The position numbers and the translations under genes are program-made. Shown here piece after piece: positions 1 to 32,039 of a stretch of DNA of 32,297 bases. The notes under the pieces are model-generated. The model was given only the letters and a program-made list of their open reading frames with translations, was not told where the DNA came from and made no database searches. The DNA comes from a virus. Its lineage: Duplodnaviria > Heunggongvirae > Uroviricota > Caudoviricetes. The stretch lies in IMG/VR virus record IMGVR_UViG_2896589216_000003; one strand, given 5' to 3'. Numbering within the stretch: position 1 is the stretch's first letter; every line of letters begins with the position of its first letter.

Positions 1-1053
1 TTACGGGGTAATGCCAACCGCTGCCGCCACTTTGTCGCCACTTGGCAGCGTTGCCAGAGGATTGAAACGGAGCGCCGTTTCCAGATGATCCAGTGCCAGA
101 TGTGCGTAACGCATAGTCATTTTTATATCGTGGTGTCCGAGAATTTTTTGTAAGGCCAGAATGTTTCCACCCGACATCATGAAGTGCGCCGCAAACGTAT
201 GGCGCAGAACGTGTGTGAGTTGACCGCGAGGGAGCACGATAGACGTTTTTTCCATCACGGATAAAAATTGAAAATAGCAGTCTGTGAAGAAATTGAACCC
301 ATCAAGCGCCATGATCTCTTCGTAAAGCTCTTTACTGATAGGGATGCTTCTGTTTTTCTTCCCCTTCGTTCTGACAAAGGTAATTCGGTATTTGGTCACC
401 TGTGAGCGGGTAAGATTTACGGCTTCACGCTAGCGTGCGCCTGTGCTTAAGCATATCTTAACTACCAGTGCCAGAATTGGGTCCTGACGTTTGCAATCAG
501 CCAGCAATTCAACAATCTGCTCATGGGTAAGCCATGCCATCTCTTTTTCTGCGATGGTGAATTTTCGCATGTTCTCCAGTGGGTTCGGATACGACCATTC
601 GCCCAGACGGGATAGTTCGCTAAAAACACTACTTAGATAGCTTTGCTCCAGGTTAATGGTGACCGGGCTTGCTCCTTTCTTCCATTTCTCGCTGAAGTAG
701 ATCTCGCCTGTCAGGCGTTTATCTCGATAGTGGGCAAACATTTTAGAGGTGAGATCGGTTGCAAGAGGATTGCCCAGAGCGTCAACCATCAACAGCAATT
801 TGTCATAGACATGCTGCCCAGCTGTCAGAGATTTACCATGTAGTTTGAACCATAGCTCAACCACGTCTTTCAGTGTTCGACGATCCACTGATTCACCCAG
901 CCAGGGCTTTGCTTCGGTTTCTTCCATCGTGTGGCGCTCAAAAGCCAGTGCTTCGCCTTTGGTGGCGAATTGTTTACGCACACGACGCCCACTTCGTCCG
1001 GCAGGGTAACATTCGCAAAGCCATTTCCCAGTGGTGAGTTTTCGTACTGCCAT
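1..1053 (-). pseudogene. int: P2-family tyrosine integrase interrupted by one in-frame TAG (430-432); 3' end (TAA) at window position 1-3
   Basis: ORFs 430..1209 and 1..399 are in the same frame. N-part ends ...LSTGAR then TAG; C-part has RHTFA...HHD...MRYAHL catalytic motifs. TAG sits where P2-type integrases have Trp (TGG). Start ATG 1051-1053 preceded by GGAGGG. Confidence 0.85.
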
Positions 1054-1241
1054 AAAAAATGCCCTCCAGTAGAGAGTATTTTTACTGTATGTATAACCAG
1101 TGTCAATGTATGAAATCCTACGACCATACATCTCACTGAAGCCATAATGAAGTTGGCTATTCTTTTTGCTATGTGAGCATGTAACTTTTGCGGTTAACCT
1201 GCGGCTCATTTTTATTTTAGACGCAGATATAAAAGCAAAAG

Positions 1242-1445
1242 TTATCGTGAGTTTTTAGTACAGATTTTTTTGGATTTACTAATAGTTCCATCATTGCAAA
1301 CAAATTTTCCATCGGAGGTACAGTGAGAGACACCTCCCTTTTTCCCAGAACAAGGATAATTTTTAGCATAGGTAGTTAGTGGGCTTAATAACAAAGAGCA
1401 TGATAAAGAGCATGATAAAACCACAAAAAATACTTTACCAAGCAT
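1242..1445 (-). CDS. small secreted cysteine-rich protein (signal peptide plus about 45-aa mature peptide with 4 Cys); moron between int and repressor
   Basis: Strong RBS GGAGGAAAC before ATG; hydrophobic N-terminus; AT-rich; perfect 12-bp tandem duplication at 1395-1418 inside the signal-peptide coding part (SCSLSCSL). Confidence 0.5.
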
Positions 1446-1460
1446 AGTTTCCTCCCGGTA

Positions 1461-2036
1461 TTATCTAACATATTTAACTGTTAAACTTATAATTTTACCA
1501 ATTATTTCAATGTCTTCTATCTTACAGTCGAAGGCTCTGTTTCCACCCTCGACGAAGATTCTTCCACCGGGTAAACGAGTAATGTCACGGATCGTTACTT
1601 CGCCATCAATACTTATTACCCATTTACCATCACGTATGTCATCAAATTCTTTATCACAAATAAATTCAGAATTGTTATCTGTGATGACAAAAGGTTTTTT
1701 AAACGTAGAGGGTAGAAATCCCTTATCAAAAATATAAAAACCGTCTTCACGCAAGGCACCATCAGATAATACATATTTAGCAACTTCCATAGTATTTGTA
1801 TTACCTGAAGTTTGCTTTGAACCATGTCCGGTTGTGAGCCAATTAAGCGAGGTGCCCGTTTCAAGGGCGCACTGGATTACCCATTCTGCTGGGAATGAGT
1901 CACGCATGTAGCGTGTGGCGAGTGTACTTTTAGAGATTCCTAAATGATCGCACAACGCCTGTCGAGTCTTGAATCCATAAGCTTCTACCATGCGCTCTAT
2001 GGCGCCTCGTCCGCCTTTCTCCAAATTCATGGTCAC
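1461..2036 (-). CDS. phage CI-type immunity repressor (186 CI-like: N-terminal HTH plus C-terminal domain)
   Basis: 191 aa; HTH-like segment RQALCDHLGISKSTLATRY; position and orientation next to int and divergent from the Apl/Cox-position gene. Confidence 0.75.
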   Translation of the reverse strand: MTMNLEKGGRGAIERMVEAYGFKTRQALCDHLGISKSTLATRYMRDSFPAEWVIQCALETGTSLNWLTTGHGSKQTSGNTNTMEVAKYVLSDGALREDGFYIFDKGFLPSTFKKPFVITDNNSEFICDKEFDDIRDGKWVISIDGEVTIRDITRLPGGRIFVEGGNRAFDCKIEDIEIIGKIISLTVKYVR

Positions 2037-2155
2037 TCCAAGTGAACTTTTATCTTGGCGATTTCACTGTGCGATCGTATGCTTATGGTGTTCACAAAAT
2101 ACAAACGATCCGTATTCGTCCTGATTAATCATCATTAAACGAGGAATGTTGCATC
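2037..2155. promoter_or_regulatory. immunity switch region between repressor and lytic-operon first gene (promoters and operators expected)
   Basis: Position only; contains inverted GTGAAC/GTTCAC elements and direct CGATCGTAT / CGATCCGTAT repeats. No operator assigned with certainty. Confidence 0.3.
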
Positions 2156-2377
2156 ATGAGACCTAACATTTCAATCACTCTTACCACGCCTCATGTGACT
2201 ATTGAACGCTATAGCGAGCTGACAGGGCTATCCATCGATACCATCAATGACATGTTGGCTGATGGACGCCTTATCCGTCACCGTCTGCGCAAAGATAAAA
2301 AACGCGAAAAAGTGATGATCAACATAGCAGCAATGACCGTTGATGCGCTTTCAGAATGCAATCTAAACCTTAATTAG
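2156..2377 (+). CDS. small HTH protein at the Cox/Apl position (putative excisionase / lytic-switch regulator)
   Basis: 73 aa; first rightward gene after the switch; HTH-like [21 protein letters not shown]. Confidence 0.5.
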
Positions 2378-2403
2378 TTCGATTCTGAAATACATCAGAG
2401 GCA

Positions 2404-2589
2404 TTGACCATGTTTGATTACCAAGTTTCCAAACATCCATATTTTGATGAAGCCTGTCGTGCATTTGCACTGCGCCACAATCTGGTGCAACTGGCAGAAC
2501 GTGCAGGCATGAATGTGCAGATTCTGCGGAACAAGCTGAACCCAGCTCAGCCTCATTTATTAACCGCACCAGAAATCTGGCTGCTTTGA
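2404..2589 (+). pseudogene. cII-like regulator, N-terminal 61 codons only; truncated by IS911 left end
   Basis: ORF stop codon TGA (2587-2589) is the first bases of the IS911 terminal repeat TGAAGTGGCACACTG; synteny with 186-type early operon. Confidence 0.55.
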
Positions 2590-2726
2590 AGTGGCACACT
2601 GAATTTGGCCACCTGAACAGAGGTGATATGCTCACCTCAGAACAACACAGGTGCTCCAATGAAAAAAAGAAATTTTAGCGCAGAGTTTAAACGCGAATCC
2701 GCTCAACTGGTTGTTGACCAGAAATA

Positions 2727-2735
2727 CACGGTGGC
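2727..2735. repeat. 9-bp target-site duplication CACGGTGGC, left copy, of IS1 copy 1
   Basis: Identical 9-mer at 3504-3512 immediately after the IS1 right end. Confidence 0.9.
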
Positions 2736-2790
2736 GGTGATGCTGCCAACTTACTGATTTAGTGTATGATGGTGTTTTTGAGGTGCTCCA

Positions 2791-3066
2791 GTGGCTTCTG
2801 TTTCTATCAGCTGTCCCTCCTGTTCAGCTACTGACGGGGTGGTGCGTAACGGCAAAAGCACTGCCGGACATCAGCGCTATCTCTGCTCTCACTGCCGTAA
2901 AACATGGCAACTGCAGTTCACTTACACCGCTTCTCAACCCGGTACGCACCAGAAAATTATTGATATGGCCATGAATGGCGTTGGATGCCGGGCAACTGCA
3001 CGCATTATGGGCGTTAGCCTCAACACGATTTTACGTCACTTAAAAAACTCAGGCCGCAGTCGGTAA
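2791..3066 (+). CDS. insA: IS1 InsA
   Basis: 91 aa, [42 protein letters not shown]... Confidence 0.95.
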
Positions 3067-3110
3067 CCTCGCGCATACAGCCGGGCAGTGACGTCATCGT
3101 CTGCGCGGAA

Positions 3111-4604
<1,494 letters not shown>

Positions 4605-4612
4605 CCACTTCA

Positions 4613-4783
4613 ACCGGCGATGGACTGTGTCTGCTGACCAAACGGCTGGAGCGCGGCCGCTTCGCCTGGCCGTCAGCCCGGGATGGCAAAGTGTTCCTCA
4701 CACCGGCACAGCTGGCGATGCTCCTTGAAGGTATCGACTGGCGGCAGCCTAAAAGACTGCTTACGTCCCTGACTATGTTGTAA
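4613..4783 (+). pseudogene. IS66-family tnpB, C-terminal fragment
   Basis: Begins directly at the IS911 right end with no start codon of its own. Confidence 0.7.
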
Positions 4784-4831
4784 GCCTCTTTATCCTGGTC
4801 GACGCTGAATGAGCCTGGTAATATACCCGGT

Positions 4832-6369
4832 ATGAGCAGCTCACTTCCTGACGATATCAATGCACTGAAACGTCTCCTTGCCGAACAGGAGGCGCTGAAC
4901 CGTGCCCTGCTGGAAAAGCTGAACGAGCGTGAACGCGAAATAGACCATCTGCAGGCACAGCTGGATAAGCTGCGCCGGATGAACTTCGGCAGCCGCTCCG
5001 AAAAAGTCTCCCGTCGTATCGCACAGATGGAAGCTGACCTGAAGGCACTTCAGAAAGAAAGTGATACCCTTACCGGTCGGGTTGACGACCCGGCCGTGCA
5101 GCGCCCGCTGCGTCAAACCCGCACCCGCAAACCGTTCCCCGAATCACTCCCCGCGATGAAAAACGGCTGCTGCCGGCAGCGTCATGCTGCCCGGAATGTG
5201 GAGGCTCACTGAGCTATCCGGGTGAGGATGCCGCCGAACAGCTGGAGTTGATGCGCAGCGTCTTCCGGGTTATCCGGACTGTACGTGAAAAGCATGCCTG
5301 TACTCAGTGCGATGCCATCGTGCAGGCCCCCGCGCCTTCACGGCCCATCGAGCGGGGTATCGCAGGACCGGGGCTGCTGGCCCGCGTGCTGATCTCAAAG
5401 TATGCAGAGCACACCCCGCTGTACCGCCAGTCTGAAATGTACGGCCGCCAGGGCGTGGAGCTGAGTCGTTCACTGCTGTCGGGCTGGGTGGATGCATGCT
5501 GCCGGCTACTGTCACCGCTGGAAGAAGCGCTTCAGGACTATGTGCTGACTGACGGTAAGCTCCATGCTGATGACACGCCTGTCCCGGTGCTGTTGCCAGG
5601 CAATAAGAAAACGAAGACCGGGCGGTTATGGACCTACGTTCGTGACGACCGTAACGCCGGGTCAACGCTGGCGCCGGCGGTGTGGTTCGCTTACAGCCCG
5701 GACAGAAAAGGCATCCATCCGCAGACCCATCTTGCGGGGTTCAGTGGTGTACTGCAGGCGGATGCATACGCCGGGTTCAACGAGCTGTACCGGGATGGCC
5801 GGATAACGGAAGCCGCCTGTTGGGCTCACGCCCGCCGTAAAATCCACGATGTGCACGTTCGCACCCCGTCAGCCCTGACGGAGGAAGCGCTGAAACGGAT
5901 CGGCGAACTGTACGCCATCGAGGCAGAGATAAGGGGAATGACGGCGGAGCAGCGCCTTGCCGAACGTCAGTTGAAAACGAAACCGCTGCTGAAATCCCTG
6001 GAAAGCTGGCTGCGTGAAAAGATGAAAACCCTGTCGCGACACTCAGAACTGGCGAAAGCGTTCGCATACGCCCTGAACCAGTGGCCGGCGCTGACGTACT
6101 ATGCAGATGATGGCTGGGCTGAGGCGGACAATAATATCGCTGAAAATGCGTTGCGGATGGTCAGTCTGGGCCGCAAAAACTACCTGTTCTTCGGTTCGGA
6201 TCATGGAGGAGAGCGGGGAGCGCTGCTGTACAGCCTGATCGGGACGTGCAAACTGAACGGAGTGGAGCCAGAAAGCTACCTCCGCTATGTACTTGACGTC
6301 ATAGCCGACTGGCCGATAAACCGGGTCGGCGAACTGCTCCCCTGGCGCGTAGCACTGCCGACTGAATAA
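4832..6369 (+). pseudogene. IS66-family transposase TnpC, frameshifted at the C-run 5149-5152
   Basis: ORF 4832..5212 ends ...[16 protein letters not shown]; the other frame continues [23 protein letters not shown]... straight into ORF 5248..6369. Confidence 0.8.
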
Positions 6370-6407
6370 CACATCCCCGTCAATACGGTTCTTGCTGCAC
6401 GCTTACC

Positions 6408-7304
6408 ATTGACGGGCGTGGTCTGGCTGGCGAGATCAGCAAGGAAACGGGTAAATCCCTGCGTGATAACGCTGAATACGTTAATCCCTGGGCGTCTCTG
6501 CATCGTGTTCAGCAATTCCGCTTCTTTGGTATTCCAGGGCGTCAGGCTTACCGTGAACTGCGGTTGTTGGCTGGTCAGGCGGCAAGGCAGCAGGGTGACA
6601 AAAAAGCAGGTGCGCCGGTACTGGATAACCCGCGCCTTGATGCCATCCTGGCTGCTGCTGATGCTGGCTGTTTTGCCACCTACATTATGAGGCAGGGCGG
6701 CGTGCTGGTTCCTCGCAAATATCACTTGATCAGAACCGCTTATGAAATCAATGAAGAGCCGACCGCCTATGGCGATCACGGTATTCGTATTTATGGCATC
6801 TGGTCACCCATTGCAGAAGGCAAGATCTGCACTCATGCAGTGAAGTGGAAAATGGTTCGTAAAGCCGTTGACGTTCAGGAGGCGGCAGCCGACCAGGGCG
6901 CTTGCGCCCCTTGGACTCGTGGCAATAACTGTCCCCTTGCTGAAAATTTGAACCAACAGGAGAAAGATAAATCAGCTGATGGGAACCCCAGAACGGACAT
7001 TACCAGCATGGATGACAAGGAGTTGCACGATTACCTGCACAGTATGAGCAAAAAAGAGCGCCGGGAACTGGCAGCAAGGTTACGCCTGGTGAAACCGAAA
7101 CGGCGTAAAGACTACAAACAGCGAATTACAGACCATCAGCGACTGCAGCTCGTGTATGAGCTGAAGTCCAGAGGATTTGATGGCAGCGAGAAAGAGGTCG
7201 ATTTACTCCTTCGCGGAGGCAGTATTCCGTCAGGAGCAGGCCTGCGTATCTTCTATCGGAACCAGCGTTTGCAGGAAGATGATCAGTGGCGGAACCTGTA
7301 TTAA
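6408..7304 (+). pseudogene. phage early-region protein, C-terminal fragment, 5'-truncated by the IS66-family element (by synteny probably the replication gene A-type protein)
   Basis: Reading frame is open from the IS end with no start codon; lies between the early region and the tum-like cassette. Identity not verified. Confidence 0.35.
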
Positions 7305-7387
7305 TTACGCGGGTTAACAATTCGTGCTCTTAATAATACCAGGCATATCAGGCTGATGAACGTAAAAAAACGTTTTACATCAGTAAG

Positions 7388-7396
7388 ATTATTATA
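7388..7396. repeat. 9-bp target-site duplication ATTATTATA, left copy, of IS1 copy 2
   Basis: Identical 9-mer at 8165-8173. Confidence 0.9.
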
Positions 7397-7411
7397 GGTA
7401 ATGACTCCAAC

Positions 7412-7915
7412 TCACTGATAGTGTTTTATGTTCAGATAATGCCCGATGACCTTGTCATGCAGCTCCACCGATTTTGAGAACGACAGTGACTTCCGTCCCA
7501 GCCTTGCCAGATGTTGTCTCAGATTCAGATTATGTCGCTCAATGCGCTGAGTGTAACGCTTGCTGATAACGTGCAGCTTTCCCTTCAGGCGTGATTCATA
7601 CAGCGGCCAGCCATCCGTCATCCATACCACGACCTCAAAGGCCGACAGCAGGCTCAGAAGACGCTCCAGTGTGGCCAGAGTGCGTTCACCGAAGACGTGC
7701 GCCACAACCGTCCTCCGTATCCTGTCATACGCGTAAAACAGCCAGCGCTGACGTGATTTAGCACCGACGTAGCCCCACTGTTCGTCCATTTCAGCGCAGA
7801 CAATCACATCACTGCCCGGTTGTATGCGCGAGGTTACCGACTGCGGCCTGAGTTTTTTAAGTGACGTAAAACCGTGTTGAGGCCAACGCCCATAATGCGT
7901 GCACTGGCGCGACAT
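7412..7915 (-). CDS. insB: IS1 InsB frame (variant isoform)
   Basis: Identical to the copy-3 InsB ORF. Confidence 0.9.
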
Positions 7916-8109
7916 CCGACGCCATTCATGGCCATATCAATGATTTTCTGGTGCGTACCGGGCTGAGAGGCGGTGTAAGTGAACTGTAGTTGCCATGTTT
8001 TACGGCAATGAGAGCAGAGATAGCGCTGATGTCCGGCAGTGCTTTTGCCGTTACGCACCACGCCTTCAGTAGCGGAGCAGGAAGGACATCTGATGGAAAT
8101 GGAAGCCAC
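7834..8109 (-). CDS. insA: IS1 InsA (variant isoform)
   Basis: [37 protein letters not shown]... Confidence 0.9.
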
Positions 8110-8164
8110 GCAAGCACCTTAAAATCACCATCATACACTAAATCAGTAAGTTGGCAGCATTACC

Positions 8165-8173
8165 ATTATTATA
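8165..8173. repeat. 9-bp target-site duplication ATTATTATA, right copy, of IS1 copy 2
   Basis: Matches 7388-7396. Confidence 0.9.
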
Positions 8174-8175
8174 TA

Positions 8176-8191
8176 CTGTAAATATAAACAG
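8176..8191 (+). promoter_or_regulatory. LexA (SOS) box CTGTAAATATAAACAG upstream of the tum/DinI-like cassette
   Basis: Matches CTGT-N8-ACAG with an AT-rich centre (20-mer TACTGTAAATATAAACAGTG); overlaps a -10-like TATAAA; 44 bp before the ATG at 8235. Confidence 0.6.
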
Positions 8192-8234
8192 TGGTTATGC
8201 ATGCAGTATTGCGTGTGGTGTCATAGGAGGAAAG

Positions 8235-8423
8235 ATGCAGGACTATTTTTTGGAGTCTTTGAAGCTCCAGCGCATTGATTTTTTTCTTAAGCTTGTAGCG
8301 GCTAGTGAGTGTAGTGATGAAGAGAAGGGGCTGGCTCTGCAGTGGGTTTCTGAATTGACTGATGAACTCATGGCAAAAATCAGAACCCACGAATACAACC
8401 GCTCAATGGATGTCATCAGCTGA
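8235..8423 (+). CDS. small protein, first gene of the SOS-controlled cassette (possible antirepressor N-part, Tum-like by position)
   Basis: ATG 8235 preceded by AGGAGG; 62 aa; the longer upstream start (8151) would overlap the IS1 end and LexA box. Confidence 0.5.
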   Translation: MQDYFLESLKLQRIDFFLKLVAASECSDEEKGLALQWVSELTDELMAKIRTHEYNRSMDVIS

Positions 8424-8433
8424 GGTGACTTTT

Positions 8434-8667
8434 ATGCGCATTGAAATAATGATCGATAAAGAGCAGAAGATTAGCCAGTCTACCCTGGACGCTCTTGAAT
8501 CCGAGCTTTACCGCAATCTGCGCCCTCTGTATCCCAAAACGGTAATTCGTATCCGCAAAGGTAGCTCTAACGGTGTGGAACTTACCGGATTGCAACTGGA
8601 CGAAGAAAGAAAACAAGTGATGAAAATTATGCAGAAGGTGTGGGAAGACGACAGCTGGCTGCATTAA
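8434..8667 (+). CDS. DinI-family protein (186 Tum C-domain-like)
   Basis: MRIEIMIDKEQKISQSTLDALESELYRNL...KQVMKIMQKVWEDDSW aligns with DinI (MRIEVTIAK...DALAGELSRR...ILQETWESADDW); RBS GAGG before ATG 8434. Confidence 0.75.
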   Translation: MRIEIMIDKEQKISQSTLDALESELYRNLRPLYPKTVIRIRKGSSNGVELTGLQLDEERKQVMKIMQKVWEDDSWLH

Positions 8668-8802
8668 GAAACGTTGCTGGCGTCTGAACTAGCTTCTGGC
8701 GTCAGCAAGGTTGAACAACGAGCCCTTGCGAGGCGTTAGCTCTGTAGTGCATGTCTATGCCGCATGAGATCGCATGATCGTTTGAGGATCGTTTTTGCTA
8801 AG

Positions 8803-8827
8803 GCCCGCCAGAACTGGCGGGCTTTTG
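8803..8827 (+). terminator. rho-independent terminator after the DinI-like gene
   Basis: GCCCGCCA-gaac-TGGCGGGC stem followed by TTTTG. Confidence 0.65.
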
Positions 8828-8889
8828 CGTAGATCATGCAGGTGCATGAAAACCACTACATAAAGCGGGCAGGCGTGGCGGGGATACGA

Positions 8890-8917
8890 TTGCGCGCTAG
8901 GTATAAGTGTGTAAAAT
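8890..8917 (+). promoter_or_regulatory. candidate sigma70 promoter for the ATPase/HNH module
   Basis: TTGCGC ... TG-adjacent TAAAAT about 40 bp upstream of ATG 8960; weak, by eye only. Confidence 0.25.
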
Positions 8918-8959
8918 AATTCCAAAATAAATCATCACTAATGAAGTGAGAGGGTAATA

Positions 8960-10609
8960 ATGTTAGTCAAGAAAAATAAAAATTATAGTTTATATTTTTT
9001 AATTACAAATAATCAACAGATATCTGATTCTGGTAATTATATAAAAATAGTCCCATCAAGAAGCGATTGGAATGATTTTGGATATTTGAGTAGAGTCGAA
9101 ATATCTATTTTTAATAAAAAAGAGTGTAAGGATATAATTTCACTGAATGGTTATATTGGTTTTTTGAATTCAGAGGAGGAACGAAATGGAAAAGCAGAAC
9201 TGATAAGGCGAGTGAAAAAAAAGGAAGAATCTAATTTAAAGGATGAGGGGTTTAATGATTATTTTGTCATGCTTCAGGATATGAATAATTATCGAAGACT
9301 AGTAAGATTTTTTGGGGTGAATGAATCCAAATATATATTAAATTTCATTAATGATGTTGTTTCTAAGAAAAGTGACGCTAGTGCAGAGAATTTGAGGAAA
9401 AAAGCAATCTCTTCTGATATCTTTAATAAATCTTTCATTAGAGAGTCTGAGTCGTATTTTACTTTCAAAAATGCAGGAACAGTTCTTTCCGGTATTCAAT
9501 ATGAGGAGTTGGGTAATTTATCACAGCACATCAAGATTAGCTATTCGAATAAAGTTAATGAAGAAGATGTATCTTATGTTTTTAATTTTGATCACGAGCA
9601 TGATTTACCAAAAAGAATTTCCATAATTATAGGCGAGAATGGTGTAGGAAAAAGCCAAACGCTTAGAGAAATCGCATTGGCTGCGATTAAAGGAAAGGAT
9701 AATTTGGTGGCTGTAGTTGATTCTAACGGTGTGAGCATTGAAGAACGAATTCAAATTAGTAGGCTCATTGCTTTTTCTCCAACAAATGAAAGTAAGTGTT
9801 CATTTCCAACCGATAAAAGAATAAAATCATTGATATGGTACAAAAGATTGACTTTAAATCGTGAATCAAAATCCAAATTAAACTTGAATGATTTAATAGT
9901 GCAACTAGCGAGGAGTAACGACGCTATCGGCTATAATCAAAGGTGGAATATATTTGTTGATGCACTGAGTGTTCTAAATAGTAACAACGATTTAGTAATC
10001 AAATGTGGCGGTGAAAATTCACCATTTGTTAAATTAAATGAGCTTAATTCTCGAGGCGAAGAATCTAGACTATCATTATATTCTGAAATTATTCTCTCTG
10101 GCGAGCCTTTGAGGCTTATTGAAAATAAATGTTACCCTTTGAGTAGTGGGGAAATATCGTTTATTAAGTTTTGTGTACAAGTTTGTTTGTATATTGAGAA
10201 TGGGACTCTTCTATTAATAGATGAGCCAGAAACACATCTCCATCCTTCATTTATTAATAAATTTATGGCATTGCTTGATAATTTATTAGAAAAGACAGGC
10301 TCTTCAGCTATCATAGCAACGCATTCGGTTTATCTTGTTCGGGAGGTTTTTAAGGAGCAAGTGACAATACTCAGAAGACGAGATGATGGGGTAATTGTTA
10401 GCGAAAAACCGAGATTGAGTACTTTTGGGGCGAATATAGGAAATATCTCATATTTTGTTTTCGGTGAGAGTGAACCAACTCAAATTTTAAATAAAGTAAA
10501 AAACAATATAATTGCAAAGAATATGTCTTGGGATGATGTTGAATCTAAATATAGCGAGGACTTATCACTTAATGTATTAACTGCGTTGAGAAATGAAATG
10601 GGCAATTGA
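8960..10609 (+). CDS. ABC/OLD-type (AAA_21-like) ATPase with about 215-aa N-terminal domain of unknown function; candidate defence protein
   Basis: 549 aa; Walker A GENGVGKS (aa 225-232), signature-like LSSGE (394-398), Walker B/D-loop LLLIDEPETHLHP (417-429), H-loop ATHS (453-456); RBS GAGAGGG; strongly AT-rich. Confidence 0.8.
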   Translation: MLVKKNKNYSLYFLITNNQQISDSGNYIKIVPSRSDWNDFGYLSRVEISIFNKKECKDIISLNGYIGFLNSEEERNGKAELIRRVKKKEESNLKDEGFNDYFVMLQDMNNYRRLVRFFGVNESKYILNFINDVVSKKSDASAENLRKKAISSDIFNKSFIRESESYFTFKNAGTVLSGIQYEELGNLSQHIKISYSNKVNEEDVSYVFNFDHEHDLPKRISIIIGENGVGKSQTLREIALAAIKGKDNLVAVVDSNGVSIEERIQISRLIAFSPTNESKCSFPTDKRIKSLIWYKRLTLNRESKSKLNLNDLIVQLARSNDAIGYNQRWNIFVDALSVLNSNNDLVIKCGGENSPFVKLNELNSRGEESRLSLYSEIILSGEPLRLIENKCYPLSSGEISFIKFCVQVCLYIENGTLLLIDEPETHLHPSFINKFMALLDNLLEKTGSSAIIATHSVYLVREVFKEQVTILRRRDDGVIVSEKPRLSTFGANIGNISYFVFGESEPTQILNKVKNNIIAKNMSWDDVESKYSEDLSLNVLTALRNEMGN

Positions 10610-11474
10610 AATGAATAAATTAAAAAGACCTGTTTTTAAAGATTATTCTGCATTTAAAAAACTATCTGCAAATAAGAGATTAAAACATCATTCTGTTCTG
10701 AATGGACAGGATACATTTATACTTAATGCATATAGATCGTACATAAAGAATAAAGGGTATCTTAATGTCAATTCTTGTGGCGTATTGAGTAACAATATTG
10801 CTGAAGCTTTGAGATATTATTATAACAATCCCGCAAAGTGTTTATCTATAATTGATGATATAAGAGCAGCTAATTCTAACTCTCTATGTCCAATGTGTGG
10901 TTCAATGCATAGCGGGACTTTGGATCATGTTTTACCCAAGGAAAACTATCCAGAATTTTCTTTATTCACTAAGAATTTGGTTCCTGCTTGCAAATGTAAT
11001 ACTTTCAAAAGTACTACTATAGCTAATTCTGCAGGCCATCGGATGCTGCATCCATATTTTGATAATATATTAAAACAAAGATTAATATGTGCTAATTTTT
11101 CTAAATTAGGGCGAACACCTACAATTGATGTAAAAATCATAATTGACCCAATGTCACCAGAATATAACAATGTTAAGTATCATCTTGATAATGTTGTTAT
11201 CAAGAATAATATTAAGGGGTATTTGTCTGAACAATGGGAGTCGTTTTACTTATATCCTGAGCTTGTTATTAGAGGACTGAATAAGAGTCTTTCTACTTAT
11301 AGCGATGTATATGAGTTGTTGACTCGCGAGTTGTTGCTGTTGGATGAAAAACATAAAGGTAAAAATAATTGGAATTCGGTTTTTGTAGCTGGGTTAATTC
11401 GACCTGATGTGATTAGGTGGATACTCTGTGAATTACATTTAGGTAACAGAAGTCCAGACGGTCGTCTCATATGA
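10593..11474 (+). CDS. HNH / His-Me-finger nuclease-like protein, partner of the ATPase
   Basis: CPMC-x8-DH-x20-CKCN ... H-x3-H (aa 99-153); overlaps the upstream gene by 17 nt (alternative in-frame ATG at 10611); same AT-rich composition. Confidence 0.7.
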   Translation: MKWAIEMNKLKRPVFKDYSAFKKLSANKRLKHHSVLNGQDTFILNAYRSYIKNKGYLNVNSCGVLSNNIAEALRYYYNNPAKCLSIIDDIRAANSNSLCPMCGSMHSGTLDHVLPKENYPEFSLFTKNLVPACKCNTFKSTTIANSAGHRMLHPYFDNILKQRLICANFSKLGRTPTIDVKIIIDPMSPEYNNVKYHLDNVVIKNNIKGYLSEQWESFYLYPELVIRGLNKSLSTYSDVYELLTRELLLLDEKHKGKNNWNSVFVAGLIRPDVIRWILCELHLGNRSPDGRLI

Positions 11475-11484
11475 TTTTTTGCAT

Positions 11485-11510
11485 CTTCAGCGTGTATCTG
11501 CACGCTGAAG
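11485..11510. repeat. perfect 10-bp inverted repeat (CTTCAGCGTG-tatctg-CACGCTGAAG) in the AT-rich spacer between the HNH gene and portal end; cos-proximal region
   Basis: Seen directly; T6 run upstream, A-rich downstream; not a canonical terminator in either direction. Confidence 0.4.
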
Positions 11511-11581
11511 AAATTCATAAAAACTGCTGCCTATTAATAAATTTTTTTAGCTGAGTTAAAGAACCTCATTTAGTGATTACG

Positions 11582-12615
11582 TTAAGTAGCTAGTTTATAA
11601 CTATCAAATTTAACAATGTTCTCACTTACCAATTTATTTATTTCCATCATTCTTTTTTGTAACGGTATTAACTCGTTACGTACAAACACCAGGCTCGCCT
11701 TCTCCACATCCCCAAACCCCCGACATTATTAGGCATAATCCCCATCATTTGCGGTGGCACACGATGCGCCGCCATCATGTCATCCCGGCTCACGTTCTTG
11801 ATGTTCAGAAACTCATCCTTCGCCGCGACTTCTGACAACGGGATGATCTGAAGCCCGTCCTTTTTGCCGTTAGGCGAGTACATAAACAGATTGCGGAAGT
11901 TACCTGGTCCTTTGGCGCTTTTCATCGCATTGCGGAGGTTGTTCACATCCTCCTGGTTTTGCGCGGCATCGGTCATGTACATGATGAAGCCTGCATGACT
12001 GCCGTTAATGTAATACTATCGGCGGAACAGCGTGGCGGACTCGTTGAGCAGGGCTGACGGAATGGCAGAAAGGTAACCTGGCAGGCCGTAGATCTCTTGG
12101 TTGATGTCCGGTTCCATCAGATGAAAGATGCTTCCTTTCGTGAACTGATACGGCTGCGTGGTCATGCCGTATTGCACAAACCAGTAGGTATCCAGGTCTA
12201 ATCCGCGTCGGGTGTATTTTGCCAGAGCAGGCTCAAGAGCGATGACCTCTCCGAACCGGTTTGTGCGTTTCTCCAGGTAAGCGTTACCAAATACCAGATA
12301 ATCCTGCACAAAACGTGAAAAAGCCTGCTGGCTGAGCAGCGGGTGAGGGATGTAGGTACTGATCAGAATGTTGCATTTCACCGCAATTGGTGAACTGTGA
12401 TGCACGGCGGCGCGGAAGGTGCGCGCCAGTCCGTCAAAACTCACTGGCGGCTCATACCAGCGATCTGTCTGTACGCATTCCACATAGTCCAGTAGTTCAC
12501 GGCGGTCCAGAACCGGAACGGGATCGCCGAAGCTGAATGCTTCGGCTGAAGTCTGGTTTTTATGCTGGGTCTGTTTCGTCGCCGCAGCGCGGTTCTTCTT
12601 ACTCTTTCCCATCAA
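11582..12615 (-). pseudogene. Q: portal protein (P2 gpQ-like) with in-frame TAG (12016-12018) and a 1-bp frameshift near 11714-11716
   Basis: N-part ...LNESATLFRR then TAG, continuing in the same frame (LYINGSHAGFIMY...); C-terminal ...PNNVGGLGMWRRR* shifts frame, the other frame gives GDVEKASLVFVRNELIPLQ... to stop at 11582. Confidence 0.8.
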
Positions 12616-14378
12616 AAAATCTCCACAATATTGCTGGTATTGGCGGACTCGCCCTGCAGCGGTTCGTTAAACAGTGCGTGCATTGTTGCCCAGGCCAGAT
12701 CGGCATGGCTGGCTTCTTCGCTGCGGCTGGCTTCATAGGTCGGGCGGTTGCCGCTGGCGGTGGTGGCGCGACGGATTGCCATGAATGACTGCGCAATGTC
12801 GGTGTGCCCGGCGTCAAACTCAAGACGGCGGTGGCTGATAATGTCGTAGGCCTTGAGTACCAGGGCGTTTTTAACGTTGGGGTTGTAGACAAACTCCCGG
12901 ACGGCAGGAAAAAACGCTTTCACGTTCTCGTAAACCCCGTGACCAACGCCGGTTGAGTCGATGCCGATATAGGTCACGTTGTACTGTTCAGTCAGTTTTT
13001 TGATGGCGTAAGCCTGGGCGCGAAAGTCCATTCCGCGCCACTGGTGACGCTCAAGAATGCGGAACTTACCGCCTGGCACGGCTGGCGGTGCCACCACCAC
13101 GCATCCGGCGCTGTCGCCGTTCTGCGTACCTTTTGCCGGGTCATAACCGATCCACACTTCGCGCCAGCCAAACGGGCGCAGGGCCAGTGCATGAAAGTCG
13201 GTCCAGACTTCCCAGCTGTCCACCATGCACGCCTGCAATTCGCTGAGCGGGAACACGGACGCGAGATCGTCCACGAACTCGCACATCAGCAGGTTCTGGT
13301 ATTCGTCAGGGCTGTACTCCATGCGCAACTGGTCAAGGTCGAACAGGTTACAGGCGCCGCGCACCGCATCTTCCACGGTGACTATCTGGCGGTATTGCCC
13401 GTCTGCGCACAGCAGGCCGGGGGCCAGATTGCTGTGGGACAGGTCGATGTCCACCTTGTCAGCTTTGTTGCGCCCACGGTTGAACAGCGCACCGGACCAG
13501 AACGGATAAGCACTGTGGGTCAGACTGGATGGTGTGGAAAAATAGGTCTGCCGCCATTTCTTGTGAATAGCCATACCAGAAGCCACTTTGCGTAGCTCCT
13601 GAAATTTCGGTATCCAGAAATATTCATCCAGATACAGGTTACCGTGATAACTCTGGGCAGTGCGGGCATTGGTGCCGAGGAAATACAGTGTGGCCCCGTT
13701 GGGAAGCACCATCGGATCGCCTTTCAGCTCCACCTCCACTTCTTTGGCAAAGTCGATGATGTACTGTTTGAAGACGTGGGCCTGTGCCTTACTGGCAGAA
13801 AGGAAAATCTGGTTACGTCCGGTAAGCAGGGCGTCAATCAGGGCTTCACGGGCAAAATAGAAGGTCGCGCCGATCTGGCGTGACTTCAGCAGGTTGCGGA
13901 TGCGGTTGGTTTTTCCGGCTTCCCACCAGTGGCGCTGGTAGTTGAACATGGAGGAATGGAAATTTTTTTCCAGCTTCTCAATCTGGTCATCGGTGAAAAC
14001 ATTCTTTTCAGGCTGACGGCGTGGGCCTTTGTTGCGGTTGGCGACGTTAGGGTTTAAGTCGGCTTCGTTGCCGCCATTGTTAAACTTGCCGATCCGCGCG
14101 TGGCGCTCAGACTGGCGCGCCAGCAGGTCAATATCTTTGAAATCTTTCCCTTCTTTGTGCTCCTTCATGATGAGCTGGCAGTAGCGTGCGGCGGTGGTGA
14201 GCTGCATCTGATCCAGAGGCCCATAGTCACCCCACTTGTCGCGTTTTTTCCAGCTGTAAACGGTTGCAACTTTCTCGCCCAGCATTTCAGCAATGCGGGC
14301 TACGCGGTATCCCTGAAAGTACAGCAGCATGGCCTGCCGACGGGGATCGAGATCTGCGGGTGTCAGTGTGGTGTTCAT
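12612..14378 (-). CDS. P: terminase large (ATPase) subunit, P2 gpP-like
   Basis: 588 aa, apparently intact; divergent from the O-N-M operon as in P2. Confidence 0.85.
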   Translation of the reverse strand: MNTTLTPADLDPRRQAMLLYFQGYRVARIAEMLGEKVATVYSWKKRDKWGDYGPLDQMQLTTAARYCQLIMKEHKEGKDFKDIDLLARQSERHARIGKFNNGGNEADLNPNVANRNKGPRRQPEKNVFTDDQIEKLEKNFHSSMFNYQRHWWEAGKTNRIRNLLKSRQIGATFYFAREALIDALLTGRNQIFLSASKAQAHVFKQYIIDFAKEVEVELKGDPMVLPNGATLYFLGTNARTAQSYHGNLYLDEYFWIPKFQELRKVASGMAIHKKWRQTYFSTPSSLTHSAYPFWSGALFNRGRNKADKVDIDLSHSNLAPGLLCADGQYRQIVTVEDAVRGACNLFDLDQLRMEYSPDEYQNLLMCEFVDDLASVFPLSELQACMVDSWEVWTDFHALALRPFGWREVWIGYDPAKGTQNGDSAGCVVVAPPAVPGGKFRILERHQWRGMDFRAQAYAIKKLTEQYNVTYIGIDSTGVGHGVYENVKAFFPAVREFVYNPNVKNALVLKAYDIISHRRLEFDAGHTDIAQSFMAIRRATTASGNRPTYEASRSEEASHADLAWATMHALFNEPLQGESANTSNIVEIF

Positions 14379-14424
14379 GGCACAAACCTACAGCCTTGAA
14401 TGAAGGCTTTCCCCGCCTGCGGTT

Positions 14425-14442
14425 TGTGTGGTTGTCGGTACA
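14425..14442. promoter_or_regulatory. Ogr-type late-promoter activator site TGT-N12-ACA in the P/O divergent control region
   Basis: TGTGTGGTTGTCGGTACA; centre about 87 bp upstream of the O start codon. Confidence 0.45.
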
Positions 14443-14520
14443 AATACCGCGCATTGTTTCACTGCCCCTATCACCGCAACCATAAGGCTCCAGTAAGTTT
14501 TTTCTAACGGAGCACGGCTC

Positions 14521-15354
14521 ATGACAGTGAAAGCAAAGCGTTTTCGCATCGGGGTGGAAGGTGCCACCACCGACGGACGCGAAATCCAGCGTGAATGGCT
14601 GGAACAGATGGCAGCCAGCTATAACCCGGCGGTGTATACCGCGCTGATTAACCTTGAGCACATCAAGTCTTATCTGCCGGACAGCACCTTTAACCGCTAC
14701 GGCAAGGTGACGGCGCTGTTTGCTGAAGAAATCACGGAAGGTCCGCTGGCAGGCAAGATGGCGCTGTATGCTGACGTTGAGCCAACGGAGTCCCTGGTGG
14801 AACTGGTGAAAAAAGGCCAGAAATTATTCACCTCTATGGAAGTCAGCCCGAAGTTCGCTGATACGGGCAAAGCCTACCTGGTCGGCCTGGCTGCCACTGA
14901 TGACCCTGCCAGTCTGGGCACTGAAATGCTGACATTCAGCGCCAGTGCAGCCCATAACCCGCTGGCAAACCGCAAGCAGAATCCCGCCAATCTCTTTACC
15001 GCCGCAGAGGAAACGGTGATCGAACTGGAAGAAGTCCAGGACGACAAACCGTCCCTGTTTGCCCGCGTCACGGCGCTGTTTACCAAAAAAGAGCAGTCCG
15101 ATGACGCCCGGTTCTCTGATGTGCATAAGGCCGTGGAGCTGGTCGCCACTGAGCAGCAGAACCTGAGCGCACGCACCGAAAAATCCCTGTCTGAGCAGGA
15201 AGAACGCCTGTCTGAGCTGGAGACTGCCCTGCAGGCACAGCAAACCGCCTTTAACGAACTGGTGGACAAGCTGAGTCATGAAGACAGCCGCCAGGACTAC
15301 CGCCAGCGTGCAACAGGCGGTAACGCCCCCGCTGACACTCTGACCAATTGCTGA
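14521..15354 (+). CDS. O: capsid scaffolding protein, P2 gpO-like
   Basis: 277 aa; first gene of the late head operon. Confidence 0.85.
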   Translation: MTVKAKRFRIGVEGATTDGREIQREWLEQMAASYNPAVYTALINLEHIKSYLPDSTFNRYGKVTALFAEEITEGPLAGKMALYADVEPTESLVELVKKGQKLFTSMEVSPKFADTGKAYLVGLAATDDPASLGTEMLTFSASAAHNPLANRKQNPANLFTAAEETVIELEEVQDDKPSLFARVTALFTKKEQSDDARFSDVHKAVELVATEQQNLSARTEKSLSEQEERLSELETALQAQQTAFNELVDKLSHEDSRQDYRQRATGGNAPADTLTNC

Positions 15355-15370
15355 TGGAGCACAAAACCTG

Positions 15371-16429
15371 ATGAAGAAGAATACCCGCTTTGCTTTTAAC
15401 GCTTACCTGCAGCAACTGGCGCGTCTGAACGGTGTGGCAGTTGAAGAACTGTCCAGCAAGTTCACCGTAGAGCCGTCCGTGCAGCAGACGCTGGAAGACC
15501 AGATCCAGCAGTCCGCCGCTTTCCTGACTCTGATTAACGTCACGCCAGTGACTGAGCAGTCCGGTCAGCTGCTGGGGTTGGGAGTTGGCAGCACCATTGC
15601 CGGAACCACTGATACCACTGCGAAAGAGCGTGAACCTGTCGATCCGACGCTGATGGTCGATGTGGAATATAAATGCGAGCAGACCAACTTTGACACGGTG
15701 CTGACCTACGCGAAGCTGGACCTGTGGGCGAAGTTTCAGGATTTTCAGGTGCGTATCCGTGACGCCATCGTGAAACGTCAGGCACTGGACCGCATCATGA
15801 TCGGCTTTAATGGCGTGAAGCGTGCGAAAACCTCCAACCGTAGCGAAAACCCGCTGCTGCAGGATGTGAATAAAGGCTGGCTGCAGAAAATCCGTGAGGA
15901 TGCACCGGATCACGTCATGGGCAGCACCACCACGGGCGGTGAAACCACACCGGGCGCAGTGAAAGTCGGGAAAGGTGGCGAATATGCCAACCTGGACGCC
16001 GTGGTGATGGATGCCGTCAATGAGCTTATCGACGTGGTCTACCAGGACGATGACGATCTGGTGGTGATTTGCGGTCGTGAACTGCTGTCTGACAAGTATT
16101 TCCCGCTGGTCAACAAAGAGCAGGAAAACAGTGAAAAACTGGCTGCCGATATGATCATCAGTCAGAAACGCATGGGTGGCCTGCAGGCCGTGCGTGCGCC
16201 GTTCTTCCCGCCGAATGCGCTGCTGATCACCCGTCTGGATAACCTGTCCATCTACTGGCAGGAAGACACCCGCCGCCGTTCAGTTATCGACAACCCGAAA
16301 CGTGACCGGATTGAAAACTTTGAATCCGTTAACGAAGCCTATGTGGTTGAGGACTACCGCTGCGCCGCACTGGTGGAAAACATCCAGATTAGTGATTTCA
16401 GCGCCGCCGCAGCCGAAACCGGAGCGTAA
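15371..16429 (+). CDS. N: major capsid protein, P2 gpN-like
   Basis: 352 aa; ...RFAFNAYLQQLARLNG...FTVEPSVQQTL... P2 N-type N-terminus. Confidence 0.9.
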   Translation: MKKNTRFAFNAYLQQLARLNGVAVEELSSKFTVEPSVQQTLEDQIQQSAAFLTLINVTPVTEQSGQLLGLGVGSTIAGTTDTTAKEREPVDPTLMVDVEYKCEQTNFDTVLTYAKLDLWAKFQDFQVRIRDAIVKRQALDRIMIGFNGVKRAKTSNRSENPLLQDVNKGWLQKIREDAPDHVMGSTTTGGETTPGAVKVGKGGEYANLDAVVMDAVNELIDVVYQDDDDLVVICGRELLSDKYFPLVNKEQENSEKLAADMIISQKRMGGLQAVRAPFFPPNALLITRLDNLSIYWQEDTRRRSVIDNPKRDRIENFESVNEAYVVEDYRCAALVENIQISDFSAAAAETGA

Positions 16430-16432
16430 TCC

Positions 16433-17083
16433 ATGAGCCTGAGTCCCGCACGGCAGCATCGCCTGCGCGTTCAGGCTGAACAGGCCGCCCGTGAGGGTGG
16501 CAGTGTTCGCCACGCATCGGGCTATGACCTGATGCTGCTGCAACTGGCGGAAGACCGCCGCCGTCTCAAGGGCGTTCAGTCCACGGTCAAAAAAGCGGAA
16601 ATCAAAGTGGAGCTGCTGCCGAAGTACGCCGCCTGGGCGGAGGGTGTCCTGGCTGCCGGAGGCGCTCAACAGGATGACGTGCTGATGTACGTGATGTTGT
16701 GGCGCATTGATGCCGGAGATTATGCCGGGGCGCTGGAGATCTGGCGTCATGCCCTGCGTCATGGATGGGTGATGCCGCTGGGCAACCGCAACGTGCAGAC
16801 CGTGCTGACAGAGGAAATGGCAGATGCAGCGCAGAGCGCAATGCTTGCCGCCACCGGCTTTGATGCCGATCTGTTGCTGCAGACGCTGGAGCTGACAGAC
16901 GGTCTGGATATGCCGGACCAGTCACGGGCACGTCTGCATAAAGCGATTGGCGCGGTCCTGAGTGAAAGCAATCCGGCTTCCGCCCTTAATCATCTCAACC
17001 ATGCGTTACAGCTCGATCCCCGCTGTGGCGTGAAAAAAGACAAACAGCAGCTGGAGCGCAGACTGCGCAATGACAGCCGCTGA
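16433..17083 (+). CDS. M: terminase small/endonuclease subunit, P2 gpM-like
   Basis: 216 aa; follows N as in P2. Confidence 0.75.
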   Translation: MSLSPARQHRLRVQAEQAAREGGSVRHASGYDLMLLQLAEDRRRLKGVQSTVKKAEIKVELLPKYAAWAEGVLAAGGAQQDDVLMYVMLWRIDAGDYAGALEIWRHALRHGWVMPLGNRNVQTVLTEEMADAAQSAMLAATGFDADLLLQTLELTDGLDMPDQSRARLHKAIGAVLSESNPASALNHLNHALQLDPRCGVKKDKQQLERRLRNDSR

Positions 17084-17178
17084 CAGAACGTGCCCCCGCG
17101 CACGGGCGGCACGGGGTGGCGAAAGGCACAGCCACATCAAAACCCCGTCCATCGCCCTTTATTTCAGGAGAAAGCAGC

Positions 17179-17625
17179 ATGAAGTTTGTTGCGCCAGAAC
17201 AGGCACCGGAACAGGCGGAAATCATTAGAAATACGCCGTTCTGGCCTGATGTGGACCTGTCGGAGTTTCGCAGTGTCATGCGCACTGACGGCACGGTGAC
17301 GCAGCCGCGTTTAAAGTAGGTTGCACTGTCGGCAATTTCGGAGGTTAACGCAGAGCTGTATGAATTTCGCAGACGCCAGCAGATGCTGGGGTATGCGTCG
17401 GAACAGCTGGACGGGAAAAGTGAGCGCATTCAGCACTATTTCAACGCGGTTTACTGCTGGGCTCGCGCCATGCTCAACGAACGTTTCCAGGACTATGACG
17501 CCACGGCATCCGGTGCGAAGCGGGGCGAAGAACTGGCGGAAGCAAGCGGTGATTTGTGGCGTGACGCCCGCTGGGCCATCAGCCGGGTGCAGGACGCGCC
17601 GCACTGCACAGTGGAGCTTATCTGA
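17179..17625 (+). pseudogene. L: head completion/stabilisation protein (P2 gpL-like) with in-frame TAG at 17317-17319
   Basis: ATG 17179 with AGGAG RBS; ...VTQPRLK then TAG then VALSAISEVNAELYEF... in the same frame, ending ...RDARWAISRVQDAPHCTVELI. Confidence 0.75.
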
Positions 17626-19871: not shown

Positions 19872-20265
19872 ATTGCAGAAGGTGGACGACTGGCTGAGTG
19901 CATTATTGGCGAATCTGGAGCCAGCCGCAAGAAGCCGCATGATGCGCCAGCTGGCGCAGGAACTGCGCCGGACACAGCAGCAGAATATCAGGATGCAGCG
20001 CAATCCAGATGGCAGCAGTTATGAGCCGCGCAGGGTAACAGCACGCAGCAAAAAGGGGCGCATCAAACGTCAGATGTTTACAAAGCTGCGCACCACAAAA
20101 TACCTGAAAACTGCAGCCAGCGCCGATTCTGCCAGCGTACAGTTTGAAGGTAGGGTGCAGCGCATTGCCCGTATTCACCATTACGGCTTGAGTGATCGCG
20201 TCAGTCGAAAAGGTATTTATACCATCTATGCGAAAAGGCAGTTATTAGGTTTTAATGTCCGGTAA
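19864..20265 (+). pseudogene. S: tail completion protein, P2 gpS-like, 3'-truncated by IS1 copy 3
   Basis: Stop codon TAA (20263-20265) is formed by IS1 terminal bases; ...YAKRQLLGFNVR*. Confidence 0.7.
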
Positions 20266-20315
20266 TGCTGCCAACTTACTGATTTAGTGTATGATGGTGA
20301 TTTTAAGGTGCTTGC

Positions 20316-20591
20316 GTGGCTTCCATTTCCATCAGATGTCCTTCCTGCTCCGCTATTGAAGGCGTGGTGCGTAACGGCAAAAGAACTGCCGGACATCAGC
20401 GCTATCTCTGCTCTCATTGCCGTAAAACATGGCAACTACAGTTCACTTACACCGCCTCTCAGCCCGGTACGCACCAGAAAATCATTGATATGGCCATGAA
20501 TGGCGTCGGATGTCGCGCCAGTGCACGCATTATGGGCGTTGGCCTCAACACGGTTTTACGTCACTTAAAAAACTCAGGCCGCAGTCGGTAA
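20316..20591 (+). CDS. insA: IS1 InsA (variant isoform)
   Basis: [37 protein letters not shown]... Confidence 0.9.
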
Positions 20592-21013
20592 CCTCGCGCA
20601 TACAACCGGGCAGTGATGTGATTGTCTGCGCTGAAATGGACGAACAGTGGGGCTACGTCGGTGCTAAATCACGTCAGCGCTGGCTGTTTTACGCGTATGA
20701 CAGGATACGGAGGACGGTTGTGGCGCACGTCTTCGGTGAACGCACTCTGGCCACACTGGAGCGTCTTCTGAGCCTGCTGTCGGCCTTTGAGGTCGTGGTA
20801 TGGATGACGGATGGCTGGCCGCTGTATGAATCACGCCTGAAGGGAAAGCTGCACGTTATCAGCAAGCGTTACACTCAGCGCATTGAGCGACATAATCTGA
20901 ATCTGAGACAACATCTGGCAAGGCTGGGACGGAAGTCACTGTCGTTCTCAAAATCGGTGGAGCTGCATGACAAGGTCATCGGGCATTATCTGAACATAAA
21001 ACACTATCAGTAA
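20510..21013 (+). CDS. insB: IS1 InsB frame (variant isoform)
   Basis: 167-aa ORF identical to that of copy 2. Confidence 0.9.
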
Positions 21014-21023
21014 GTTGGCAGCA

Positions 21024-21560
21024 TTACCATGCAGCCCTCACAATATAGTTAAAAGCGACATTTCGTGGGCGTGTTTCATTCGCACCTGCAGGTTTAGTCG
21101 TTGCCGCAACAACACCACCCTCTGTAATAGCCGGGTTGGGAATTGGGTAATTATCGAAGTCAATGGCCGGAGACAGGGGCGTGATTTGTTTTAAAATCGT
21201 GGTGCCTGTAAAACTTTCCAGAGTCTGGTCGTTAGTTCGTGAAGTCCAGATTCCCCAATAGTGGTTATGACTGACAATCGCACCGTCCTGAAGCGTTAAT
21301 AATCCCCTTCCGTTATCCACTCCACGTCCGTCATCCCAGCCACGAATAAACTCACCGCGTAAATCAGGCAATTTATTTGTCGGGTAAGCCTTTGCCAGTT
21401 CCGGGTATTCTTCAGCAGAAAAAGCCGCACCATTGCATTTCAGCCAGCCTGTCGGCGGAGTGGCTGAAGGCCACGGAACAGGCACACCAACAGGTAATGC
21501 AGAGCCTTCTCCCAAACCAACGTTTAAGAAAATGCAGAGATAATGGCTAACTGGCATCAT
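21024..21560 (-). pseudogene. tail-fibre variable C-terminal cassette (inverted-orientation segment of a Gin/Pin-type shufflon), truncated by IS1 copy 3
   Basis: ...PVGVPVPWPSATPPTGWLKCNGAAFSAEEYPELAKAYPTNKLPDLRGEFIRGWDDGRGVDNGRG... conserved tail-fibre junction motif; ORF begins at the crossover-like site and runs into the IS1 end. Confidence 0.65.
21507..21532. promoter_or_regulatory. gix/hix/cix-like 26-bp imperfect palindrome: candidate invertase crossover site
   Basis: TTCTCCCAAACCAACGTTTAAGAAAA resembles gix (TTATCCAAAACCTCGGTTTACAGGAA); sits at the 5' end of the tail-fibre cassette next to the invertase gene. Confidence 0.5.
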
Positions 21561-32010: not shown

Positions 32011-32029
32011 AGCCCTCAACGCGAGGGCT
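32011..32029 (-). terminator. hairpin between convergent ybjM and grxA (likely grxA terminator, possibly bidirectional)
   Basis: AGCCCTC-aacgc-GAGGGCT, followed on the minus strand by a T-rich tract. Confidence 0.5.
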
Positions 32030-32039
32030 TGTCAGACGA

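Follow-up and report, generated by a model that had tools for sequence, protein, structure and literature searches.

Three amber codons in a defective P2-like prophage of Shigella, consistent with ordinary pseudogenization

Cryptic P2-like prophages of Escherichia coli and Shigella, of which the P2-related remnant of E. coli B is an example, retain the P2 gene order and a fixed attachment site, are inactivated by point mutations, insertion sequences (IS) and deletions, and keep some of their cargo. Decay of Shigella genomes is likewise marked by IS expansion and the accumulation of pseudogenes. The element described here is carried by IMG/VR record IMGVR_UViG_2896589216_000003, a stretch of 32,297 nucleotides referred to in its entirety as the window, and its genes for the integrase (int), the portal protein (Q) and the head completion protein (L) each contain an in-frame amber (TAG) codon. 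These three codons are very probably independent loss-of-function point mutations that accumulated neutrally in a cryptic P2-like Shigella prophage. The element shares all the features listed above for cryptic P2-like prophages and shows no difference in kind from them; its particular set of lesions (W208*, K199*, Q47* and the layout of IS1, IS911 and IS66-family elements) is specific to this Shigella clade. Multiple copies of IS1, IS911 and IS66-family elements, IS-mediated deletions and nonsense and frameshift pseudogenes also match Shigella genome decay, with the difference that the decay of host metabolic genes is there at issue, whereas here it is seen in a prophage. The single-base changes to UAG, which fall in the genes for the integrase, the portal and head completion, are in addition reminiscent of laboratory suppressor-sensitive (amber) mutants, from which the present alleles differ in being natural, fixed and nested in wild isolates, in being accompanied by unsuppressible lesions and in having no evident suppressor. 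The finding is an ordinary one.

Positions 1–20609 of the window are 100% identical to CP026832.1, the PacBio genome of Shigella dysenteriae 14 ATCC 49346 (PMC10132075). Among complete E. coli genomes, strain UPEC-245U (NZ_CP049845.1; locus L001) carries the closest intact relative, a P2-like prophage of 34 kb, the genes of which are all annotated as intact. This prophage and the window element occupy the same chromosomal site, between rcdA (ybjK) and ybjL, and their aligned blocks are collinear and 99.2–99.9% identical. The gene order in the window is that of P2 (int, C, cox and A; Q–P divergent from O–N–M–L–X; lysis; R–S; FI–FII–E–T–U–D; ogr), and Pfam searches of the called genes returned Phage_GPA, Phage_portal, Terminase_6, Phage_GPO_N, Phage_cap_P2, Phage_GPL, Phage_sheath_1, Phage_GPD and Ogr_Delta. 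By gene set and order the element is thus assigned to the P2-like (Peduoviridae-type) prophages. It is not functionally complete in the sense of being able to excise, replicate and form particles: int, Q, L, T and A all carry disruptions, V, W, J and I have been deleted along with most of H, and to judge from its sequence it is a defective remnant rather than an active phage.

The ancestral states of the three codons were obtained by projecting the 50 annotated coding sequences of L001 codon by codon onto the window. Within the prophage genes aligned in this manner there are exactly three nonsense substitutions relative to L001, every one of them to TAG and every one a single-base change, and no nonsense substitution to TAA or TGA. 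The affected genes are as follows.

1..1053, minus strand: P2-type tyrosine integrase (int) pseudogene, 99.7% identical to the intact L001 int.
11582..12612, minus strand: portal (gpQ) pseudogene, with the amber codon and a 1-bp deletion in a C/G homopolymer at 11716/11717.
17179..17625, plus strand: head completion (gpL) pseudogene, with the amber codon and an 18-bp in-frame deletion at 17399.

In int, the TAG at 430–432 (minus strand) directly follows the residues ICLSTGAR and corresponds to W208* by a G>A transition (TGG>TAG). The portal codon lies at 12016–12018 (minus strand) after ESATLFRR and arose by an A>T transversion (AAG>TAG, K199*), while that in L lies at 17317–17319 (plus strand) after VTQPRLK and arose by a C>T transition (CAG>TAG, Q47*). 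L001 keeps TGG, AAG and CAG at the three sites. The int gene is full length except for this one nonsense codon, which divides the N-terminal from the C-terminal catalytic part; the Pfam family Int_N matches residues 1–207 and Phage_integrase matches the C-terminal piece. Phage_GPL matches both pieces of gpL, and weak matches to Phage_portal fall on both pieces of the portal protein, in which the 1-bp deletion shifts the frame after approximately codon 299. The predicted products would end at residue 207 in the integrase and comprise 198 of 343 residues of the portal protein and 46 of 154 residues of gpL. An earlier sequence-only reading of the window had placed in-frame TAG codons at these same three positions, each one substitution from a sense codon and none of them TAA or TGA, and had stated that related integrases carry tryptophan after LSTGAR. 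Translation of the window and the alignment to an intact homologue that it had proposed as a check agree with this account throughout, with the ancestral codons confirmed in L001, including TGG for Trp208. Its description of the three genes as otherwise full-length holds for int but not for the portal gene, with its frameshift, or for L, with its in-frame deletion.

Three single-base changes each create a UAG codon and truncate the predicted product. Tyrosine recombinases carry their nucleophilic tyrosine near the C-terminus. An integrase ending at residue 207 would lack the C-terminal part that matches Phage_integrase, which would make excision of the prophage impossible and could thereby have fixed it in place. 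The remaining phage functions may then have decayed neutrally by point mutation, homopolymer slippage and IS insertion or deletion, the mutations presumably being gathered during vertical descent in the Shigella clade once selection as a phage had ended. The features of neutral pseudogenization are all present: each stop is one substitution away from a sense codon, close relatives carry the intact allele and the element contains other inactivating lesions. From the mutations, ancestral codons, distribution, other lesions and expected frequencies observed in this analysis we infer neutrality and the absence of read-through.

In-frame TAG codons inside otherwise recognizable phage genes could also arise if TAG were reassigned to a sense codon, as in stop-codon-recoded phages. 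There are, however, only three such codons, and none is found in the near-identical intact relative L001 (99.4–99.8% identity). Three of the 50 reference genes end in TAG, among them a cox-like gene that is retained in the window, and ARAGORN found no tRNA gene, and with it no suppressor tRNA, in the 32,297-nucleotide window that it was given. The sense codons of L001, the lack of a tRNA in the window and the use of TAG as a normal terminator rule out recoding, the likelihood of which is practically nil.

The distribution of the amber alleles was assessed by exact-protein look-up in a public assembly collection and by comparison of related loci. The exact 207-residue truncated integrase occurs in 186 blocks of the collection and the exact 198-residue truncated portal protein in 1377, among them CP000036.1, which we take to be S. 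boydii Sb227. Among related Shigella loci with coverage of the site, 19 of 19 have the portal amber, and the int amber is present in all seven related Shigella loci that were fetched via other genes (L019, L022, L023, L026, L029 and L030 being among them); loci L002–L011 were retrieved via the truncated int itself and are therefore uninformative as to the frequency of the int amber. The L amber, found in at least eight assemblies, is limited to a subset of loci and is always paired with the 18-bp deletion. In Sb227 and a number of further assemblies the portal amber coexists with CAG at L codon 47, so that the ancestral codon persists in Shigella relatives in which Q is already interrupted. 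This nested distribution, with the portal and int ambers clade-wide and the L amber in a sub-lineage only, implies that the ambers arose at at least two separate times, with the L amber on a branch other than that of the int and portal ambers.

The same distribution bears on a possible laboratory origin, in which the prophage would descend from amber-mutant phage stocks selected on a suppressor host. A multiply-marked laboratory phage would indeed look much like this, with its three ambers in classic phage genes. The alleles are, however, fixed in the chromosomes of numerous natural isolates of Shigella that differ in serotype and were sequenced in different projects, and the element occupies a natural chromosomal attachment site and shows IS decay typical of Shigella. 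Classical mutagens typically give GC>AT transitions, unlike the AAG>TAG change in the portal gene, which is a transversion. Since only a sub-lineage carries the L amber, the three ambers cannot have come from one stock, and the limitation of this amber to a wild sub-lineage that already carries the other two rules out a laboratory stock, the chance of which we regard as close to negligible.

Codon 208 of int is also hit elsewhere, as TGG>TGA in locus L004 (logan SRR5943232) and as TGG>TAG in locus L008 (logan ERR13187157). It looks like a site of recurrent hits, although a look-up with the truncated protein selects for exactly such cases. Locus L008, with TAG in int and an intact portal lysine, had been considered as placing the int amber first among the lesions. 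This proposal was dropped, since the L008 int differs at nine other sites and forms a clearly different haplotype, and the host flanks of both L004 and L008 are approximately 1% diverged. The L008 codon may represent an independent recurrence of TGG>TAG, so that either the int or the portal amber may have come first. A contig scan with a 36-mer spanning the portal codon, its variable base set to N, recovered only one 4.5-kb contig from a metagenome-assembled genome (MAG), carrying the intact lysine allele, and thus showed no taxonomic spread. This contig (L039; JAEYLX010000057.1), labelled 'MAG: Bacillota bacterium', contains a P2-like portal gene identical over the 36-mer searched and is probably a mis-binned enterobacterial prophage fragment.

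Whether three TAG codons out of three exceed chance was evaluated by enumerating all single-base routes to a stop codon in the reference prophage genes under four generic mutation models and under the spectrum of the window itself. The expected share of TAG among nonsense changes ranges from 0.40 in the uniform model to 0.51 in the transition-rich model, giving a probability of 0.06–0.13 that all three are TAG. The substitutions separating the window from L001 comprise 40 GC>AT against 14 AT>GC changes, with 39 transitions and 25 transversions, and a GC>AT asymmetry of this kind would be anticipated had most changes occurred on an unconstrained Shigella branch. Under the empirical spectrum the expected shares are 0.50 for TAG, 0.28 for TAA and 0.22 for TGA, so that the probability of three TAG is 0.13; the probability that three stops are alike is 0.13–0.16 (0.16 under the empirical spectrum). 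About half of all nonsense changes are expected to be TAG because CAG and TGG are common codons that lie one GC>AT transition from it. Nonsense changes are expected to make up 4.4% of coding substitutions, or 2.0–2.2 among approximately 45–50, compared with the three observed. Both the number and the type of stop codons fit neutral, unconstrained mutation, and the all-TAG pattern reflects mutation supply, with no biology behind it.

The principal alternative is that the Shigella lineage has or had a natural amber-suppressor tRNA, such that UAG was partly read through, tolerated and enriched in prophage and host genes. The three TAG codons of the window would accord with this explanation, and further TAG events occur in relatives, as Q669* in A and, among host genes, as W280* in dacC (TGG>TAG), S109* in potH (TCG>TAG) and L7* in ybjC (TTG>TAG). 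TGA nonsense alleles are, however, also found in sister lineages, namely W43* in P of locus L020 (CP026828.1) and the int codon 208 allele of L004. The TAG-containing genes are moreover not otherwise intact under purifying selection, given the portal frameshift, the L deletion and the missing essential modules, and the prophage is dead regardless of its ambers because of its IS insertions and frameshifts and the absence of baseplate, fibre and replication genes; in a dead prophage no selection could favour TAG over TAA or TGA. The lack of a tRNA gene in the window likewise speaks against a suppressor. Literature on natural amber suppressors and on the types of stop codon in Shigella pseudogenes was searched without a usable result.

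Some observations weigh against neutral pseudogenization and in favour of a suppressor. Pooled over the clade, independent nonsense events in the prophage and 10-kb host flanks number seven TAG, two TGA and no TAA, a tally that leans to TAG (P ≃ 0.09 for at least seven of nine and P ≃ 0.05 for no TAA in nine) and that includes the host genes dacC and potH. In addition, a host suppressor is excluded here by argument and not by inspection of the host tRNA genes. The pooled nine nevertheless include the three that were chosen post hoc, and the unselected six (four TAG and two TGA) give P = 0.35. Given codon usage and the mutation spectrum, the excess of TAG over TAA and TGA is therefore not significant in the window (P = 0.13), in the pooled set (0.09) or in the unselected set (0.35). 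A suppressor background is unnecessary, since a dead prophage can tolerate any stop codon without one, and it is unsupported; its involvement is judged very unlikely; equally improbable is the broader proposal that the S. dysenteriae/S. boydii clade once had an amber suppressor that left a genome-wide TAG excess, of which the 7:2:0 tally would be the first hint.

The sequence-only reading had considered three TAG out of three suggestive but statistically weak, an assessment with which the calculated probabilities (0.06–0.13) concur. It had also held that premature TAA or TGA stops elsewhere in prophage genes would speak against a bias towards TAG, and TGA stops do occur in the sister lineages, although none lies inside the window. 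Of the two origins that it had put forward, an amber-suppressing background or an amber-mutant stock gains no support, the alleles being fixed in natural Shigella, the L amber being confined to a sub-lineage and TGA occurring in sister lineages. The other, ordinary pseudogenization of a dying prophage, is strongly supported by the IS elements, two large deletions, frameshifts, ambers of different age and neutral counts.

The remaining lesions that accompany the ambers include five IS elements or remnants within the prophage, comprising three IS1, one IS911 and one IS66-family remnant. Those in the early region, together with what is left of gene A, are as follows.

2587..4612, unstranded: IS911 (IS3 family) in the cII-like gene, split by an IS1 variant.
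2736–3503: IS1 variant inside IS911, with a 9-bp target duplication CACGGTGGC.
4613..6406, unstranded: 5′-truncated IS66-family (ISEc22-like) element, its tnpC split by a 1-bp deletion.
6407..7304, plus strand: C-terminal remnant of the replication endonuclease gene A, codons 506–804 (the last 299), corresponding to reference positions 1518–2415 only.
7397..8164, unstranded: IS1 insertion with a 9-bp target duplication ATTATTATA.

The early and replication region is largely lost, from the C-terminus of cII through the N-terminus of A. Relative to the sister strain CP026807.1, the window is without approximately 2.7 kb that comprise dam′, an N-terminal fragment of A and the 5′ end of the IS66-family element. 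The baseplate and tail-fibre genes V–H are lost at the third IS1.

20261..21028, unstranded: IS1 without a target duplication, marking the adjoining deletion.

The deletion at this IS1 took out the end of S together with a DUF5677 cargo gene, the genes V, W, J and I, and the greater part of H, and the surviving C-terminal segment of H (21029–21520) is inverted relative to the reference. This arrangement suggests an IS1-mediated adjacent deletion that took place on one orientation of an invertible tail-fibre segment. The locus at 20261–21520 with the inverted H segment adjoins a gene for a Cin/Gin-type invertase at 21588–22154, which is intact and carries R139L.

A further gene is disrupted by frameshifts.

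24478..27555, plus strand: tape-measure (gpT) pseudogene, frameshifted twice in runs of G (−1 at 25001 and +1 at 26476).

All frameshifts in the window (11716, 25001, 26476, 31948 and 5149) lie in C or G homopolymer runs. The +1 frameshift in gpT is common to six other assemblies, drafts among them, and looks real. The −1 frameshifts in gpT and ybjM are found only in PacBio CP0268xx assemblies, and that in the portal gene recurs in PacBio CP026xxx assemblies of lineages with both the intact (L014) and the amber (L018, L028 and L030) allele of L, a recurrence that looks like systematic error or repeated slippage. Apart from the gpT +1, the homopolymer frameshifts may be long-read assembly errors instead of real lesions. 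A corresponding explanation for the TAG codons themselves, as sequencing or assembly errors of a PacBio-only assembly, would draw on the PacBio origin of the source assembly, on the confinement of its frameshifts to homopolymers and on the presence of the portal frameshift in two L-allele lineages. The three ambers, in contrast, are substitutions and not homopolymer indels, and many independent assemblies, drafts and CP000036.1 included, contain exactly the same changes. This replication rules out error as their source and makes such an origin extremely unlikely. IS insertions, IS-mediated deletions and frameshifts would each be sufficient on their own to kill the phage.

The best-preserved part of the remnant is a cargo module placed between the A/DinI region and the portal gene.

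8960..11474, plus strand: intact two-gene cargo encoding a 549-residue AAA ATPase (AAA_15/AAA_21) and a 293-residue HNH nuclease.

The two genes match the PADLOC candidate system PDC-M01 (3e-55 for component A and 1e-33 for component B) and Septu PtuA, and the exact ATPase sequence occurs in 1221 blocks of the assembly collection. This cargo may be the reason that the remnant is kept. Between C and int, a small YdcA-like open reading frame contains a 12-bp tandem duplication (AAAGAGCATGAT, present twice) at 1381–1404, which lengthens it from 63 to 67 residues and is shared by several relatives.

The host genes at 31634–32297 differ from those of the closest E. coli relative by a 1-bp deletion at 31948 and H27Y in ybjM and by Q49P in grxA; the exact GrxA variant with Q49P occurs in 447 blocks. 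Beyond the window, the host flanks of loci L002–L011 and L031–L038 contain the ambers in dacC, potH and ybjC together with several frameshifts. Frameshifted neighbouring host genes in the Shigella clade are an mdfA-like gene, a GST-like gene and yliI, and those decayed by either nonsense or frameshift mutation are dacC, the mdfA-like gene, a yliJ-like gene, ybjM and potH.

A genome-wide excess of TAG, if true, would suggest that a pathogen lineage has a natural suppressor and would be of moderate interest. As the evidence stands, the finding carries little weight beyond annotation. It does provide a caution: with E. coli-type codon usage and a GC>AT bias, approximately half of new nonsense codons are expected to be TAG, and a few pseudogenes that all carry ambers are no evidence of suppression. 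Taken with the IS insertions and deletions, the ambers show how a P2-like prophage has decayed step by step within a Shigella clade, and they could be used to mark lineages.

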